This document shows, one piece after another, positions 7,033 to 38,177 of a stretch of DNA of 64,000 bases. Source of the stretch: a virus; the IMG/VR virus record IMGVR_UViG_3300032220_001630, positions 1-64,000 of that record, one strand, 5' to 3'. The translations under genes were made by a program, and so were the position numbers. Within the stretch, counting starts at the first letter, position 1; every line of letters starts with the position of its first letter. Below the pieces are notes generated by a model. The model saw only the letters and a list, made by a program, of their open reading frames with translations. It was not told where the DNA came from and made no database searches.

Positions 7033-7040
7033 GATATATA
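7033..7040 (+). promoter_or_regulatory. Candidate late promoter GATATATA
   Basis: Motif recurs about 15 times just upstream of gene starts, strand-matched. Confidence 0.65.
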
Positions 7041-9286: not shown

Positions 9287-9339
9287 GATATATAACTTTT
9301 AAATGAAACAAGAAAATCTCTAATAGAATAAGATATATA
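9287..9339 (+). promoter_or_regulatory. Tandem candidate late promoters
   Basis: GATATATA at 9287-9294 and 9332-9339. Confidence 0.6.
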
Positions 9340-9357: not shown

Positions 9358-11679
9358 ATGGAAAAAAATAATAGTCCGGAGATCAACAGATTAAACATGG
9401 AGACTTCCAAAAATCTTGCAGAATCTTTAAAAGAATGGGCAGGATTAGATTCTCCAAAATCACAAGTTGCTTCTTCTTTCCTTAATGGATCGACCGCTCA
9501 GATGATAAAAGAATCTAACAGTAATGAATTTTCACCTAAGCCTTTAAATAATACAATATTTAGCTTTGGTCTTATTAATACTGTTTCTGCACTAAAAAAT
9601 TCAAGTCTTAATGAATTACCAGCAGGAAAGATTATGTTGGAAAGATACGAGGGTCTTCTTCTACAGAAAGGAATCTCAGAAGCTTTCCTTATTGAAGGAT
9701 TTTTAAATGACCTTAAATCTTTCTCATGGGAATCATCAGTAACTTCTGTTCTGGAAAACGTAAATTCTATCTTCGAAAATAGAAGAAGAGAGGTAGAGGT
9801 AGTAAAAGCATATGAGACTATCAAAGTAGCACCAGGGAAAGAATTATTCTCTGATGCAACTGCACAAATGAAAGATTGGTTAGTTTCTGAGAAAAAATCC
9901 TCAGATTCACTTATCCATGGTTTAAAAAGATTTGGCTTTAATCCACTTGTTAGAAATCTAGTTAGTTTCCTCTCTATATACGAAAATAAAAATCCAAACA
10001 AATTTAATCTCGGTGTAGATAATAACGTTTGCGAAGTTTCTAATGTATATTCACCAATAATGGTTACAGAGAGCGGATCTATTTTCTTCGCTGGAGGTAA
10101 ATTCCTAAAGATTAACGAGTCTGACAATTCTATATCTGAATGCTCTATGGATGAAGTACCAGTAGATTTTCAAAATAAAGCTGGTATAATTACTGACAGA
10201 GACGTTAAGATAGATGGAAATAGAATCTCATTAAATATCGGAAATAGTAAGGTAGAGATTGTATTCGAGAACGAAGAAAAGCAAATCTATTTCGACGGTA
10301 AAAGAATCAATGAATCTGATTTACCTGCTGCAGTTAGTGTTACTACTAATAGTCTTTTAGAAAATTCAAACTATAAAGCTTCTAAAGCAGCATTTATCGC
10401 TAAAAGTGCTGATGACATCGTAGATATAGATTTCGGTAAAAAGATAAAATCTAAACTGTACGAAGGAGTAGAAGCTAACATTTTCAAATTTGCAAATAAG
10501 ATATACGTTCAAACTGTTAATCCTTCTATGAGATTAAACAAAATTTATGAGGCTAATGCTACTCAAGCTATTAGCATTATAAAGGACTTTATCAAATATG
10601 ACATCTCTGAATCTTTAACTGAATTCTTACAGGGAGAGCAAGCTTTCCTAAGTGTAATGAAAAATGATAAAGCTGAGATTGTTAAGAATATCCAAATTTT
10701 AGAAAGCGAAATTGCTAAAATTGATAGAGTAAAAACAGAAAATCCTTTGATTGCAAAATCTAAAGAACTAATCAGCTTACAAGAATCATTAGAAGGAGAA
10801 TTAGAAAATCTTAAGGATAAATGGAACCAAATAAATATCGAGATCGATAGATTTGAAAAATCAGCAAATCCAATTTCGGTTAATGAAGAAATGGGTTATC
10901 CTATAGATACTGACGTTAGAATAAAAAGAAACGGTGCTAAAGGTAAAATCGTAGGTGTTGATGGAAGTTCAAAAACATATACAATTTTATTTAAGGAAGG
11001 AAAAACTGGAGAATATTTTTTCTCTGATGTTGAAGATCTAGCAGACGAAGTTGATAATTACGACATACAAACTCCCGATTTAGATCTTGAGTTTAGTGAC
11101 GATGCTAATGAATCATTAGATCAAAATTTTTCAACTGCACCTGGTCCAAAAGGAGCTACTCACTATAACAACGTTTTTATGAATATGGTGAAAAAGCACA
11201 TGGCAGCTGCTCCTGATAAGGATGCTAAAGGAAGTGCTAAATTTATAGACGACCAGAAAAATTCTAATATGGCTAGTGTTAAAGGAGAAGGTAAAAAATC
11301 TCCAGCTACTAAAAACGCTAAAGTTAAAGGTCAAAATTTAGTTGAAGCTCCAGGAAAAAGTGCAGGAAAGGGTAAGAATTTTATAGAAGATCTAAAAGAT
11401 TCTAATCTTTCAAAAGCACCATCATCTGTTATTAAAAGTGCTTCTAAATTCATCGAGGATCTTAAGGATCACAACTTAGCTCTAAAAGAAAACCAAAAGA
11501 ATTCTCATATCGAAAAAGCTCCTAAAGCAAAAGTTGCTAAGCCTAAGAAATTCATTGAGAGAGAAGAACATGCTAACTTAGAGGAAGCTCCTGGAGATCA
11601 CAAGAAAAACGGTAAAGAGTTTGTAGAAGATCAAAAGAGAGCAAATTTATCTTCTGCTCCGAAGACAAAAAAAAAGTAA
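9358..11679 (+). CDS. Large probable head/core protein with C-terminal 'NL..AP' repeats
   Basis: 773 aa; late motifs upstream; coiled coil, SH3-like segment, Lys-rich repeats; several L/I-x-E-S sites. Confidence 0.6.
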   Translation: MEKNNSPEINRLNMETSKNLAESLKEWAGLDSPKSQVASSFLNGSTAQMIKESNSNEFSPKPLNNTIFSFGLINTVSALKNSSLNELPAGKIMLERYEGLLLQKGISEAFLIEGFLNDLKSFSWESSVTSVLENVNSIFENRRREVEVVKAYETIKVAPGKELFSDATAQMKDWLVSEKKSSDSLIHGLKRFGFNPLVRNLVSFLSIYENKNPNKFNLGVDNNVCEVSNVYSPIMVTESGSIFFAGGKFLKINESDNSISECSMDEVPVDFQNKAGIITDRDVKIDGNRISLNIGNSKVEIVFENEEKQIYFDGKRINESDLPAAVSVTTNSLLENSNYKASKAAFIAKSADDIVDIDFGKKIKSKLYEGVEANIFKFANKIYVQTVNPSMRLNKIYEANATQAISIIKDFIKYDISESLTEFLQGEQAFLSVMKNDKAEIVKNIQILESEIAKIDRVKTENPLIAKSKELISLQESLEGELENLKDKWNQINIEIDRFEKSANPISVNEEMGYPIDTDVRIKRNGAKGKIVGVDGSSKTYTILFKEGKTGEYFFSDVEDLADEVDNYDIQTPDLDLEFSDDANESLDQNFSTAPGPKGATHYNNVFMNMVKKHMAAAPDKDAKGSAKFIDDQKNSNMASVKGEGKKSPATKNAKVKGQNLVEAPGKSAGKGKNFIEDLKDSNLSKAPSSVIKSASKFIEDLKDHNLALKENQKNSHIEKAPKAKVAKPKKFIEREEHANLEEAPGDHKKNGKEFVEDQKRANLSSAPKTKKK

Positions 11680-11747
11680 AAACCAATAAATTAACTGAGT
11701 CTGAGACCTCTCCTGAAGAAGGAATAGGTAACAGACTCAGTTTTATT
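11667..11747 (+). promoter_or_regulatory. Programmed -1 frameshift cassette (A_AAA_AAG plus hairpin)
   Basis: A9G immediately before TAA; 11-bp stem AACTGAGTCTG (11693-11703)/CAGACTCAGTT (11732-11742). Confidence 0.7.
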
Positions 11748-11924
11748 TTAGACGATTTAAAAGATTGTCTAGGAAAATTGAAAGAATTGGAAACTTCCAG
11801 TCTAGAAAACGGTAGAATTGGAATAGACGTAATTAAGGACTCTAAGGAAAATTTGGAAAAATTAAGGATTAATTTAGAAAATCAAATAAAAAAGTTCCAA
11901 AATAATTTCCCCGACCAGTCATGA
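11676..11924 (+). CDS. Unannotated 82-aa -1-frame extension of the 9358 protein
   Basis: Open frame VKTNKLTESETSPEEGIGNRLSFILDDLKDCLGKLKELE...NNFPDQS*; no ATG; its TGA overlaps the next ATG (ATGA). Confidence 0.7.
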   Translation, partial: VKTNKLTESETSPEEGIGNRLSFILDDLKDCLGKLKELETSSLENGRIGIDVIKDSKENLEKLRINLENQIKKFQNNFPDQS

Positions 11925-12277
11925 TCTACGTAAAAAATAAAGAGCTAAAAAGAGCTTTACTCGAAAGCAAAGAAAAAGGAGAGCTAACTAGCGAAACCGT
12001 AAAAATGTTTACTTTAATAGTAAACGGTATGTCCAAGACACATTCCTATAGAGATACAGAAGACAGAGAAGATTGCATATCTTCAGGATTAGAAGATCTA
12101 GTTAAATACTGGAACAGATACGATCCAGAAAAATCTGATAATCCCTTTGCATTTATATCCCAAATAGCACACAATGGAATGAAAAAAGGATGGAAGAAAA
12201 TTCATCCACCAAAATCAATTAAAACAATCCCTTTTTCTAGAATAGTAAGAGAAGAGAATTCAAACTATAATGTTTAA
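11921..12277 (+). CDS. gp55: Late-transcription sigma factor (T4 gp55-like)
   Basis: 'YVKNKEL', 'REDCISSGLE..VKYWNRYDPEKSDNPFAFISQIA'; region-2-only sigma. Confidence 0.82.
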   Translation: MIYVKNKELKRALLESKEKGELTSETVKMFTLIVNGMSKTHSYRDTEDREDCISSGLEDLVKYWNRYDPEKSDNPFAFISQIAHNGMKKGWKKIHPPKSIKTIPFSRIVREENSNYNV

Positions 12278-12279
12278 TC

Positions 12280-12768
12280 GTGGATATAAAAAAACTCAAG
12301 CCTTCTGATAGATTTAAGTCGGGAAAGTACTTCCCTACCAATCCAGAGAAGTATGTGGGTGATATACACAATATAATTTATAGGAGTTCATGGGAAAGAA
12401 AGTTTTGTCAATATTGTGACATTAATCCAAATATAACTAAATGGAGCTCTGAACCTTGTGCTATTCCCTATTGGAGTCCAATCGATAAAAAGGAGCACAA
12501 ATATTACGTTGATTATTACATCCAGGTTAAAAAAGCAAACGACGTATTAGAAAATTGGTTTATTGAAATAAAACCTGAAAATCAATACGACCTTAAAAAA
12601 AGACCAAAAGAACCAACCGGTAATTTAACAGAAAAGAAGATAAGGTCTTACAACGAAAAATTAAAAACCTGGATAACAAATAGAGCTAAATTCGAAGCTG
12701 CAACAAGATTTGCAGAAGCTAGGGGATATAAATTTGGAGCTATAAACGAAAGCTTCATAATGAGATGA
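12280..12768 (+). CDS. gp4: Head completion nuclease (T4 gp4-like, TnsA fold)
   Basis: 'NPEKYVGD..NIIYRSSWERKFC', 'WSSE', 'IPY', 'IEIKP', 'N.AKFEAA'. Confidence 0.88.
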   Translation: MDIKKLKPSDRFKSGKYFPTNPEKYVGDIHNIIYRSSWERKFCQYCDINPNITKWSSEPCAIPYWSPIDKKEHKYYVDYYIQVKKANDVLENWFIEIKPENQYDLKKRPKEPTGNLTEKKIRSYNEKLKTWITNRAKFEAATRFAEARGYKFGAINESFIMR

Positions 12769-13355
12769 AACCCTTTAATCAATTATTCGAAGACTACAAA
12801 CTACAAGTTTCTGGACTAACCTCTTTATCAGAGGAGTCATTTATGTTTTGGTTTAAAAATTACGTTAACCAAAAATCTGAATTTAACCCAAAAGACTTCT
12901 TAACTGGAAGAGTTTATTCTTTCGAGTATAATGACAAGATTGAAAAGAATAAAAAGTTCATAAATAAAAGACCAGTAGTATTTTTTACTGGCTTTCATAG
13001 TAAGGGAGATCAAAATTATTTTAACGGAGTAGATCTTATACTAATGCCTCCAATGATAAGAATACCTTTATTTACTAGAATACAGAGCGTTTATTCATCA
13101 CAAATAGAAAATATCATAAAGATGGATAAGCAAGGAGAAAAAAGCCAAATACAATTAAAAACAGACTATGAGGTATTGAATACAATTTTCAAAGGTATTC
13201 CATTTAAAAATGCTTATAGGTTTTGGGATCTTAAAAAAATAAGGGATGTCAAAGAAATTCCTTATGAAGAATGGACTAGAATAGTATATCTACATACGAG
13301 GTCAATTGAAGGGACCCCGATAGAAGAGATATATAATAAAAATATGCAGGTTTAA
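12765..13355 (+). CDS. gp2: DNA end protector (T4 gp2-like)
   Basis: 'GRVYSFEY', 'FNGVDL..MPP..R', 'EIPYEEW'; adjacent to gp4. Confidence 0.55.
   Translation: MKPFNQLFEDYKLQVSGLTSLSEESFMFWFKNYVNQKSEFNPKDFLTGRVYSFEYNDKIEKNKKFINKRPVVFFTGFHSKGDQNYFNGVDLILMPPMIRIPLFTRIQSVYSSQIENIIKMDKQGEKSQIQLKTDYEVLNTIFKGIPFKNAYRFWDLKKIRDVKEIPYEEWTRIVYLHTRSIEGTPIEEIYNKNMQV
13328..13335 (+). promoter_or_regulatory. Candidate late promoter for the portal genes
   Basis: GATATATA 19 nt before the portal ATG. Confidence 0.6.
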
Positions 13356-14944
13356 TGGCTGGATTTACAGATGGAAATAAAACTTTTTTTAGCTCGATAA
13401 TAGACAGCGTTAGGAAAGTTGGTAGCTTCGGGATGGCCTATGGTGATCTAGTAGTAAAAAATTCACAAGCTGTCGGTGTAACAGAAGCACAATTCTTAAA
13501 GAAAGGAGGAATAAAAGATGAGGCTTTTCTTTTTGGATTAAAAAGGTCAGATACAACTACTAAGCAATACATAGCTTATTTTGATAAGGACTTCAAAAAT
13601 AAAAGACACTATGTACAGGGATTTGCACAAAATCCAGAGATAGAGTTTATATTGGATACAGTATGTGATGAAGCAATAGTCTATGACGAGAAAAATTTCT
13701 GGGCATACTTCTCTTTCATGCAGCATGATGATGTGGATGATGACGTTGCAAAAAAAGTTCAAAAAAGATATAAAGAGATTTACAATCTCTTTGGATTTAA
13801 CCAAGACATCTTAGCTTGGCACTTATTTAGAAAATTCTTAATCGAAGGTATAATATCATTCGAAATCATATTTGACAAGAAAGGGAAAAATATCATAGGA
13901 TTTAAAGAAATAGATGCGGCTTCTTTAGTACCTACAGTTGAACAGCAGCCTGATGGATCATACGTAGATATCTGGATACAGTATCCCGATAATCCATCAC
14001 TAACAAGAAAACTTTACGATTCACAATTAATCTATATAAGTTATGCTAAAGGTGGAGGAACTTCTGCAAGAATAAGCTATATTGAAAGATTGATAAGATC
14101 TTTTAACCTCTTGAGGATAATGGAGCACACTAGAATCATCTGGAACGTGATGAATTCTTCTTTCCGTATGGCAATGACAGTTCCAATCGGTACTAAATCC
14201 CCACAAAAAGCAAAGCAAACATTAGGCGAACTTATGTCTATTTATAAAGAGGACATAAGGTTAAATACAGACAGTGGAGAATTAACAGTTGATGGGAGAC
14301 CAAAAATACAATTCTTTAAGAACTATTTAATGCCTTCATCACCAAACGGAACTCCAGATATACAGCCTTTAGCTGGCGGAGGTGATGCTAGTGCATTTTC
14401 AGATACAAAAGCTTTACAATATTTCGCTAATAAACTTAGAATAGATTCAAAAGTCCCTGCAACAAGATTTGGTAGAGACGACTCTGGATCTGAAGGTACC
14501 ATTACATTCTCTGCAGATGGATTAGATCAGGAAGAAATAAGATTTGGTAAATTTATAAACAGACTTAGATCTATTTACCAGGAGATATTAATGAAACCAC
14601 TATGGGTTCAATTCTGCTTAGATTTTCCACAGCTAAAAAATGATTATATAATTAAGTCAGAATTTGGACTAGATTATGTTAAAGAAAATATGTTCCTGGA
14701 AGCTAAGGAAATGGAGGTCATGACTGCAAGAAAGGATCAGGTTATAAAAATTCTAGGTCTTAAAGATTCAGAAGGTAAATCATACTTCAGTTTAAAATTT
14801 GCTCTCGATAGATGGTTAGGAATGACCCCTCAGGATATGTTGGATAACGAAAAAGCTAAGAAAGAAGCAGCAGAGAAAAAGAAGGAAGAGGGCAAAGAGG
14901 AAAAACCTGAAGGTGAAGGTTCTGGAGAAGAATTTAAAATATAA
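13355..14944 (+). CDS. gp20: Portal protein, copy 1 (T4 gp20-like)
   Basis: 'PEIE..LD.VCDEAIV', 'SYIER.IRSFN.LRIME', 'YF..KL....KVP.TR', 'EIRF.KFI.RLR'. Confidence 0.88.
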   Translation: MAGFTDGNKTFFSSIIDSVRKVGSFGMAYGDLVVKNSQAVGVTEAQFLKKGGIKDEAFLFGLKRSDTTTKQYIAYFDKDFKNKRHYVQGFAQNPEIEFILDTVCDEAIVYDEKNFWAYFSFMQHDDVDDDVAKKVQKRYKEIYNLFGFNQDILAWHLFRKFLIEGIISFEIIFDKKGKNIIGFKEIDAASLVPTVEQQPDGSYVDIWIQYPDNPSLTRKLYDSQLIYISYAKGGGTSARISYIERLIRSFNLLRIMEHTRIIWNVMNSSFRMAMTVPIGTKSPQKAKQTLGELMSIYKEDIRLNTDSGELTVDGRPKIQFFKNYLMPSSPNGTPDIQPLAGGGDASAFSDTKALQYFANKLRIDSKVPATRFGRDDSGSEGTITFSADGLDQEEIRFGKFINRLRSIYQEILMKPLWVQFCLDFPQLKNDYIIKSEFGLDYVKENMFLEAKEMEVMTARKDQVIKILGLKDSEGKSYFSLKFALDRWLGMTPQDMLDNEKAKKEAAEKKKEEGKEEKPEGEGSGEEFKI

Positions 14945-14947
14945 AAA

Positions 14948-16621
14948 ATGGCAGGATTCGTAGACAATTTACAAAAATTAAATCCCAATTTATCAAGAAT
15001 AATAAAGTCAATTAGCGGGCTTGGATCTTTTGGTATGGAGTACAAAGACATGGTCATTGAAGATTCCATGGCAATAGGTATTTCTGAAGCTAACCTAAGA
15101 GAAAGATTTGGCTACGGAGCAGACGACGAGGACTTTATTTACAGCATAGCTGCACAGGATTCTTCAAATAGAAAATATATTGCATATTTTGATAAGGATT
15201 ATCCAGTAAGAAGGGATTTTTTAAGAACGTTTGCACTTAATGCAGAGATAGAATACGTTTTAGATACTTTATGTGACGAAGGAATAGTTTATGACGAGAA
15301 AAATTTCTTTTGTCATCCCGCAACTATGAACATGGATCTTAAAGACGATGTTATGAAATCTTTAAGAGGTAACTTTAGAAAGCTTTATGTCCTTCACAAC
15401 TTCACAAACGGATTAACTGCTTGGCAATACTTTAGACAGCTTTTAGTTGATGGATTTTTAGCATTTGAAATAATTTATTCTAGTGACGGCAAAAATATAG
15501 TAGGATTCAAGGAATTAGATGCTACTAGTCTTACTCCTGCAGTAGAAAGAAAAGCTGACGGATCTAGAGAATCCCTTTGGTGGCAATATTACGGAGATAC
15601 AACTAGACAAAGAAAACTTTTAGATGCTCAAGTAATCTATATCTCCTATGCTAAAGCTAATACTGCAGCTAGAACTTCTTATTGTGAAAGATTAGTTAGA
15701 TCTTATAACCTTCTTAAAATAATGGAGCATTCCAGAATAATATGGAATGTAATGAATTCACAGTACAGAATAAAAATGACTGTACCAATTGGAAGTAAAT
15801 CTCCGCAAAAGGCTAAAGAAACTTTAGGCGAACTTATGTCCGTATACAAAGAGGATATAAAACTTGATACTTCATCAGGAGAACTTGCAATTAACGGAAG
15901 ACCAGATTTACAATTCTATAAAAACTATCTTTTCCCACAAAGCGGCGGTGAATCAACTAAAGTTGAGACTATAAACGCTCAAGGACCAAATCTGAATATT
16001 ATGGATTCGGTAGTTTATTTCTATAATAAATTAAGACAGGATTCTAAAATACCATATAATAGATTTTCTGCAAGATGGGGTTCAGGTAGTGCTGCAGCTT
16101 ATAAAATTCCAGCAGACGGATCAGAAAGAGACGAAGTTAGATTTGCAAAATTTATAACACGTCTAAGATCTATTTTCCAAGAAATAGTAGTAAAGCCTCT
16201 ATGGATACAAATGTGTTTAGATTTTCCACATTTAAAAAATGATTCTGAATTTAGAAGCCAAATTGGGGTTAAATTTGAGAGCGATAATACTTTTGGAGAA
16301 TCAAGAGAGATAGAGCAGCTTTTAAAACATATAGACTTCATAAATTCCTTAGGTGAAATAAAAGAAACAGTTAATGACGAAGAAGTTCAATTCTTCAATC
16401 AAGACTTCCTTATAGAAAGATGGTCAGGATTGCCATATGAAGATATAATGGCAAATAAAAAATATAAGGAAAAAGAAAAAGGTGAAGCTGCACCAGCAGA
16501 AGCTCCTGCTTCTGAAGAGACCCCAGCTGAAGAGACACCTGCTGAAACACCAGCAGAAGAAACACCAGCTGAGACCCCTGCTGAGACATCAGAGGAGGGA
16601 GGAGAAGAAACTACAACCTAA
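14948..16621 (+). CDS. gp20: Portal protein, copy 2 (T4 gp20-like)
   Basis: Colinear with copy 1 and carries the same motifs; acidic PAEET tail. Confidence 0.88.
   Translation: MAGFVDNLQKLNPNLSRIIKSISGLGSFGMEYKDMVIEDSMAIGISEANLRERFGYGADDEDFIYSIAAQDSSNRKYIAYFDKDYPVRRDFLRTFALNAEIEYVLDTLCDEGIVYDEKNFFCHPATMNMDLKDDVMKSLRGNFRKLYVLHNFTNGLTAWQYFRQLLVDGFLAFEIIYSSDGKNIVGFKELDATSLTPAVERKADGSRESLWWQYYGDTTRQRKLLDAQVIYISYAKANTAARTSYCERLVRSYNLLKIMEHSRIIWNVMNSQYRIKMTVPIGSKSPQKAKETLGELMSVYKEDIKLDTSSGELAINGRPDLQFYKNYLFPQSGGESTKVETINAQGPNLNIMDSVVYFYNKLRQDSKIPYNRFSARWGSGSAAAYKIPADGSERDEVRFAKFITRLRSIFQEIVVKPLWIQMCLDFPHLKNDSEFRSQIGVKFESDNTFGESREIEQLLKHIDFINSLGEIKETVNDEEVQFFNQDFLIERWSGLPYEDIMANKKYKEKEKGEAAPAEAPASEETPAEETPAETPAEETPAETPAETSEEGGEETTT
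16486..16590 (+). repeat. Coding (P)AEET repeats in the tail of portal 2
   Basis: PAEAPASEETPAEETPAETPAEETPAETPAET. Confidence 0.8.
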
Positions 16622-37909: not shown

Positions 37910-38177
37910 ACTAAAGGATTTTCTATCTGAACAATCCACACAGGAAAAGGTAAAGGATCTACAGGCTAAAACCAATATAGAGAAAGAAATAATGGAGATT
38001 GATAAAAGAATCTCCGACATAGATCTTGCTCTGGCTAACTTAGCTAAAAGAGAGAAAGACGGGAGTCTTAAAAAAAGTGAATCCCTGTCTCAGCAAGCCA
38101 TAGAGCTACAAAAAAAAGTAGCAGAATTCCAGAAGAAATCACAGGCTGTTAAAAAGATGGAAAGCCTAGAAAAATAA
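37896..38177 (+). CDS. Small coiled-coil protein
   Basis: N-terminus 'MGIVKLKDFLSE'. Confidence 0.6.
   Translation: MGIVKLKDFLSEQSTQEKVKDLQAKTNIEKEIMEIDKRISDIDLALANLAKREKDGSLKKSESLSQQAIELQKKVAEFQKKSQAVKKMESLEK

Follow-up and report, generated by a model that had tools for sequence, protein, structure and literature searches.

Probable programmed -1 recoding at a conserved A9-N-stop site in uncultured freshwater jumbo T4-like phages

The locus and its -1-frame extension

The DNA described here, referred to as the window, comprises the first 64 kb (positions 1 to 64,000) of a 103-kb viral record in IMG/VR (IMGVR_UViG_3300032220_001630; 34% G+C), which belongs to a group of uncultured freshwater (lake) jumbo T4-like phages. 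On its plus strand, a gene for a protein of 773 amino acids (aa) extends from 9358 to 11679 and ends in the codons ACA AAA AAA AAG TAA, i.e., in a run of nine A residues (A9, 11667-11675) followed by a single G (11676) and the stop codon TAA (11677-11679). In the -1 frame, an open reading frame (ORF) of 82 codons continues on the same strand from 11676 to 11921 and is closed by a TGA at 11922-11924, which overlaps the ATG (11921) of a gp55-like sigma gene in the tetranucleotide ATGA. Joined to the upstream gene by a slip of one base within the A-run, this extension ORF would give rise to a long isoform of 855 aa. The original prediction for this DNA had described exactly such an arrangement, with the heptamer A_AAA_AAG at the gene end and a -1 frame open for 82 codons up to the sigma start, and both elements are present as described. 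Standard gene callers miss a site of this kind and leave either a 240-bp 'gap' or spurious small ORFs.

In the window, position 11616 marks the beginning of the open -1 frame, the first ATG, GTG or TTG codon of which is the TTG at 11778, corresponding to codon 35 of the extension. Over the length of the extension, the -1 frame contains no stop codon, compared to 13 for the zero frame and 10 for the +1 frame. For comparison, 79 related loci were gathered from IMG/VR using a profile of the 773-aa family, and 17 further loci representing a deeper clade (8 distinct members) were added later; conservation in the main clade was assessed on 43 distinct relatives with identities down to 40%. Each of the 43 has a -1 frame without a single stop over 80-86 codons, as opposed to 7-14 stops for the zero frame and 6-13 for the +1 frame. 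Upstream of the run, the -1 frame of these relatives contains no ATG, GTG or TTG, and the position of the first canonical start within the ORF ranges from codon 2 to codon 60. The TTG at 11778, named originally as a start codon whose use in relatives would speak for an independent small ORF, is not conserved. Moreover, third-position periodicity and an invariant Glu codon are found upstream of most candidate starts. The ratio of nonsynonymous to synonymous substitution rates (dN/dS) amounts to ~0.21 for the helical part of the extension (alignment columns 30-86) in both large clades and to 0.4-0.7 for the first 22 codons, which form a linker.

The extension had also been proposed to encode a helical domain, and this feature proved to be conserved. 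In the AlphaFold model, a short linker leads into an antiparallel two-helix hairpin (extension residues 13-45 and 50-76), the helices being predicted with a pLDDT (predicted local distance difference test score) of 70-86. In fold searches, the tail matched nothing more specific than antiparallel helical hairpins of a generic kind (Rop, the SerRS arm or Kif21A, for example), and the ESM Atlas gave no usable match. When a profile of the tail was searched against 1.84 billion proteins, only ORF calls of 45-74 aa with differing starts were retrieved, and no in-frame fusion of the tail to another protein was among them. In practice, both ORFs should be joined when such phages are annotated. Possibly, the helical tail is a tethered module through which a minority isoform oligomerises or docks. 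As a separate observation, residues 6-8 of the extension (L-T-E, 11691-11699) belong to an [ILV]-x-E motif, the Glu of which is invariant in all 43 relatives; in clade 2, this motif sits outside the arm of the RNA hairpin described below. In form it resembles a T4 prohead-protease site, but the motif is common in helical sequence.

The 773-aa protein itself has no family in Pfam or PHROGs, and the same applies to the extension tail. According to AlphaFold, the protein is folded from about residue 66 to residue 565, with a helical domain, a beta-rich domain, a long coiled-coil hairpin and a small barrel, and is followed by a disordered tail (residues 567-773) ending in KKK. A fold search of the PDB gave no match; fold matches were obtained only to uncharacterised myovirus proteins, including those of Tenacibaculum phages PTm1 and pT24, and to a small Tudor/KOW-like barrel. 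Nearly all of the 117 homologue clusters have a length of ~770 aa. The disordered tail (11060-11679) is rich in Lys, Ala and Pro and contains five to six copies of the short linear motif KF[IV]ED.K..NL..AP, the number of which varies among clades and accounts for relatives of 841-863 aa. The latter were considered as in-frame fused homologues and rejected, as they merely possess more C-terminal repeats.

Conservation of the A9-N-stop site and the downstream hairpin

Conservation of the site in relatives had been named as a check, and the comparison turned out clearly: A9-N-stop and -1 ORF are retained. At 69 loci (45 distinct), the homologue ends in A9, a tenth base that may be G, C or A, and TAA or TAG, followed by a -1 ORF of 80-86 codons. 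The pattern NNA AAA AAA AA[G/C/A] with a directly adjoining stop is invariant in the 43 distinct relatives as well as in the 8 deep-clade members. The codon preceding the run may be ACA, TCA, GCA or AGA, or in the deep clade GTA or TTA, yet it invariably ends in A, and the two Lys codons that follow are AAA in every relative. An internal control, the 400 codons at the 3' end of each of these genes, behaves differently: none of 11 conserved Lys columns is all-AAA, with AAG making up 24% of Lys codons, and the third base varies in every one of 67 fourfold-type columns (mean entropy 1.2 bits). The tenth base is a G in 38 of the 43 main-clade sequences, which places the heptamer A_AAA_AAG in the zero frame, and some relatives carry A_AAA_AAC or A_AAA_AAA instead; in the deep clade, C is the commonest tenth base (A_AAA_AAC). 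The first codon of the new frame (GTA, CTA or ATA) has an invariant third base, by which the zero-frame stop is held at exactly that position. At nine loci, a -1-frame stop lies one codon ahead of the run, and the shift would thus be confined to the run itself.

The deep clade (L085/L086 and L207-L219) is informative in another respect. Its homologues of the main protein, 844-934 aa in length, also end in A9-N-TAA. Their extension is non-homologous, comprises 52-54 codons, repeats the KFV...LSKAP-type motif of the main protein, finishes with an acidic tail and stops ahead of a canonical terminator. On a tree of the large protein (FastTree, midpoint root), A9 and extension are found in the outgroup and in both large clades, whereas run and ORF were lost together twice independently, one of the two clades concerned still keeping decayed remnants of the ORF. 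Such uncultured freshwater jumbo T4-like phages, a widespread group, would hereby be credited with a deeply conserved natural recoding site.

Run length was examined separately. With the length left free (A8-A12), no family variant with A8 or A10G was found in IMG/VR, and a scan of Joint Genome Institute (JGI) metagenome contigs for A10G yielded a single sequence, which matched by chance and is unrelated. A9 alone is seen in the assemblies searched, although minority transcripts would not surface in a consensus sequence. The substitution variants A9C and A10-T preserve the frame relation. The 103-kb genome contains just two A9 runs and no longer run. The other A9, located outside the window at genome positions 68452-68460, belongs to a 58-codon ORF, two codons ahead of its stop; it was rejected as a recoding site, since neither alternative frame stays open. 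An A8 at 38110 was likewise rejected, being gene-internal and in frame.

Downstream of the site, within the extension ORF, a hairpin with a perfect 11-bp stem (11693-11703/11732-11742) is followed by TTTTATTTT, the whole element spanning 11693-11749 on the plus strand and resembling an intrinsic terminator. The stem had been part of the original prediction and is present as proposed: the local fold has a predicted energy of -27 kcal/mol (z = -6.0), and none of 200 shuffled sequences folds as well. Covariation is strong, too. In an alignment of 40 sequences, 90.9% of the cells of 14 base pairs are paired, a share that drops to ~40% when the register is slid. Compensatory changes are seen at 9 of the pairs, and none of 500 shuffles is as good. 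Among the relatives, the hairpin starts 16-28 nucleotides (nt) after the last sense codon (median 19; 16 nt here) and has a median stem of 13 bp and a T-rich tail. In clade 2, a 13-bp stem with a 9-nt loop is followed by CTTTTTTT, which makes it a textbook terminator; the hairpin of the window was missed by a simple terminator scanner because of its 28-nt loop. Clades that lack A9 and ORF possess an equally strong hairpin with a T-run ~20 nt past their stop, while in the deep clade A9-N-TAA is present and a nearby structure is absent. A search of 11400-12100 against Rfam gave no match. A second predicted hairpin at 11749-11771, also inside the extension, is 72% paired with little covariation, occurs in the main clade only and is probably incidental to the LDDLKDCL codons.

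A site-specific 3' stimulatory structure would be looked for 5-9 nt after the heptamer, and no such structure was found, the spacer being 16-28 nt. Given this distance, the T-tract, the presence of the hairpin in clades without the site and the lack of one near the deep-clade site, hairpin and T-tract are best read as the intrinsic terminator of a late gene, which the extension ORF would read through. Since the deep-clade site does without a nearby hairpin, the common recoding signal appears to be A9-N-stop alone. The signal had been assigned to the dnaX/IS3 type, where IS denotes an insertion sequence; of this assignment, the heptamer in frame stands, whereas the hairpin as stimulator does not (spacer, T-tract and clade distribution all oppose it), a Shine-Dalgarno (SD) element is absent, and it is A9 rather than the heptamer that is conserved. 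At the level of sequence comparison, the conservation of run, stop, coding -1 ORF and hairpin, along with the joint loss of run and ORF, is shown. As regards the machine that slips, the slip frequency and the role of the tail, we infer rather than observe.

Recoding and the slipping machine

With high probability, the A-run is the site of a real, conserved and programmed -1 recoding and does not reflect an assembly error, because A9-N-stop is invariant, the -1 ORF is stop-free, lacks a conserved start and has a dN/dS of ~0.2, and run and ORF are lost together. The C-terminally extended isoform that had been postulated from the window is likewise supported by the conserved A9-N-stop and the startless coding -1 ORF, and neither of the two findings originally named as refuting it was encountered in the sequences compared. 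Non-recoding readings, even taken together, are improbable. One of them regards the 82-codon ORF as an independent small gene, translated from a non-canonical start or by re-initiation, with the A-run as mere leader or Lys tail. As translation is SD-less with A-rich leaders, an A-run might indeed aid initiation, and gene callers do predict the ORFs of 45-74 aa at this locus. This reading is nevertheless very unlikely, as there is no conserved start, periodicity and invariant Glu precede most of the possible starts, the first -1 codon is GTA, CTA or ATA, and the open frame reaches back precisely to the run in 43 of 43 relatives, being closed just before it in nine. Additionally, the ORF vanishes wherever A9 is lost, and in the deep clade the extension prolongs the repeat motif of the main protein. 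Even less credit can be given to an artefact or decay, i.e., a true A10 that was miscalled, a recent frameshift pseudogene or a phase-variable locus. Some sequencing chemistries are error-prone at homopolymers, but the same frame relation recurs in ~50 distinct sequences from many independent assemblies, including A9C and A10-T. Furthermore, the family has no A8 or A10G variant in IMG/VR, the lone A10G match in JGI contigs is unrelated, none of the 117 homologue clusters has a fused length with this tail, and the tail profile search retrieved no fused form; such an explanation is therefore highly improbable.

Accepting recoding, most expression of the 773-aa gene would end at TAA 11677, while in a fraction of events the register would slip by one base within A9. 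Translation would then proceed from GTA 11676 for 82 codons, across the putative terminator, and end at the start codon of the gp55-like sigma gene. The product would be the 855-aa isoform, in which the long disordered tail is capped by a small antiparallel helical hairpin. Two machines come into question for the slip. RNA polymerase might insert one extra A on the A9/T9 template and thereby generate A10 mRNAs, a proposal to which we assign roughly an even chance. It is favoured over the ribosome because constraint extends to all nine A's but not to the tenth base, and because no stimulator is seen; A9 is kept over its full length although A_AAA_AAG requires just six A's, and neither an upstream SD-like element nor a stimulatory hairpin is conserved among the relatives. 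In many bacteria, slippage-prone A/T runs come under negative selection at a length of nine, and A9 is the length used by Thermus thermophilus dnaX and IS elements (PMC1088944). T. thermophilus, having two Lys tRNAs, relies on polymerase slippage where Escherichia coli uses frameshifting (PMC5009743). Several observations weigh against polymerase slippage, however. With the G that the main clades mostly have as tenth base, the site forms the best bacterial heptamer, and the always adjoining stop, itself under selection, fits a ribosomal 'shifty stop' better, even if it could instead serve to hold the terminating ribosome off the terminator. If termination at the hairpin is efficient, few transcripts would contain the whole extension. 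Finally, A9 runs outside the site are about as frequent in the relatives as the decay from A7 to A8 predicts, which argues against a strong general avoidance of A9.

Alternatively, the same 855-aa isoform would result from a ribosomal -1 frameshift, with tRNA-Lys slipping on A_AAA_AAG and/or the overlapping A_AAA_AAA, aided by a slowly decoded stop immediately 3' of the run. This corresponds to the mechanism proposed originally, less the stimulatory role of the hairpin. The in-frame heptamer with G as tenth base in 38 of 43 main-clade sequences agrees with this, as does the stop, which is always adjacent and maintained by selection at a synonymous site, and all nine A's would be used if two heptamers overlap. 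In an IS element, moreover, frameshifting has been proven at an A_AAA_AAC without known stimulator (PMC4066793). On the other hand, the phage lacks a stimulator at working distance, the hairpin being 16-28 nt off and also occurring where a clade lacks the site. The deep-clade site has no hairpin nearby and predominantly C as its tenth base, an SD-like element is not conserved and the phage genes are SD-less, and the invariant first A is superfluous for a classical heptamer. A probable Bacteroidota host should have tRNA-Lys(CUU), which would make AAG poorly shifty and likewise count against the ribosome. Altogether, a ribosomal shift appears possible but somewhat doubtful. With a whole A9 conserved beside a stop, the family offers a clean comparative case and thus a test bed for polymerase versus ribosomal slippage in non-SD hosts.

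Among known systems, polymerase slippage on A9 in T. thermophilus dnaX (tau/gamma) and in IS elements is similar in that a bare sense-strand A9 near the coding end yields two C-termini without a stimulator (PMC1088944; PMC5009743). In T. thermophilus, though, slipped mRNAs give the shorter product, whereas the slipped register would give the longer one here; in the phage, the stop also adjoins the run and the new frame crosses a putative terminator, the mechanism being one we infer. The -1 programmed ribosomal frameshifting of E. coli dnaX and of IS3/IS911 shares the in-frame A_AAA_AAG heptamer and a downstream hairpin. There, the 3' structure is only a few nt away, and dnaX also uses an upstream SD-like element, in contrast to a hairpin at 16-28 nt and no SD in the phage family. 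C-terminal extension of late-gene products into major and minor isoforms, as proposed here, is known for T7/T3 gene 10A/10B, the capsid and tail-shaft genes of Listeria phages A118, A500 and PSA, and lambda G/GT (PMC5009743). The PSA shift in tsh takes place on the final sense codon ahead of the stop, and in T7 the downstream terminator affects the frameshifting of gene 10 (PMC5009743). The motifs of these phages differ (G_GUU_UUC, CCC_UGA, G_GGA_AAG), all of their shifts are ribosomal, and none of them has an extension ORF that is overprinted on a terminator and abuts a sigma gene. Transcriptional frameshifting at poly-A in Citrobacter rodentium tssM1 and Yersinia tssM3 likewise involves a tract shortly before the stop and functional short and long forms; in tssM1, however, this tract is A11 and lies 28 nt before the stop, while the phage run adjoins its stop, the frame change is opposite and the gene is bacterial (PMC4256274).

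Genome setting and the gp55-like sigma gene

The neighbourhood of the site is T4-like according to Pfam and PHROGs profile matches. The gp55-like late sigma gene (11921-12277, plus strand; 118 aa; Sigma70_r2, phrog_234) is followed by a gp4-like head-closure gene (12280-12768) and a gp2-like gene (12765-13355). In the 43 relatives, extension stop and gp55 start are arranged as ATGA in 27 cases, as TAATG or TGATG in 11 and with a gap of 5-15 nt in 5. As the stop lies on or next to the sigma start in 38 of 43, re-initiation at the gp55 start is plausible. The original prediction had gone further and proposed that only frameshifted ribosomes would reach gp55. This is not supported, since clades without the ORF retain the same conserved nucleotides upstream of gp55, namely TTGGAAAC and AAATAATTCCC-like motifs, and gp55 is thus likely to be expressed independently of frameshifted ribosomes. 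In the window, TTGGAAAC at 11787-11794 and CAAAATAATTTCCCC at 11898-11912 lie inside the extension ORF, show almost no synonymous variation and are kept in the spacer of the ORF-less clades. They may represent embedded promoter or initiation elements of gp55.

A coding frame that runs over a functional-looking terminator and reaches a late sigma gene is unusual and could tie isoform production to late-gene regulation. In a regulatory version of this idea, the extension ORF would double as a device in which the slip frequency sets the amount of late-sigma mRNA and protein made from late transcripts. A ribosome halting at TAA would leave the hairpin free to fold and transcripts would end before gp55, while ribosomes in the slipped register would translate through the hairpin, suppress termination and re-initiate at the overlapping gp55 start. 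If true, this would constitute a positive feedback loop on late transcription, and the helical tail itself may then have arisen de novo by overprinting of the spacer between terminator and promoter; attractive as it is, we consider such a role rather unlikely.

Late expression of the 773-aa gene is suggested by its upstream region. The motif GATATATA is enriched in the window (15 matches compared to 6.1 expected; none of 100 shuffles reaches 15) and is regarded as a candidate late-promoter motif, its promoter role being suggested by position. Its sites lie mostly on the plus strand just 5' of gene starts, including that of portal, e.g., at 7033, 9287, 9332, 13328, 21093, 28682 and 32063. Two of them, at 9287-9294 and 9332-9339 (plus strand), are candidate late promoters of the 773-aa gene. 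As these precede the gene and the motif is also found before portal and other morphogenetic genes, the 773-aa gene is plausibly a late gene.

Only 3 of 79 long ORFs in the 103-kb record have an SD-like core, and leaders consist of 50-59% A. The SD-less, A-rich leaders, together with the fold matches to Tenacibaculum phage proteins, point to a Bacteroidota host. No tRNA genes, including tRNA-Lys, were found in the 103-kb record. Further downstream, the window contains a tandem pair of full-length portal (gp20-like) genes at 13355-14944 and 14948-16621 (Portal_T4, 5.5e-60; phrog_213, 1.5e-57), and the closest relatives of the portal are found in huge uncultured phages and Lak phages.

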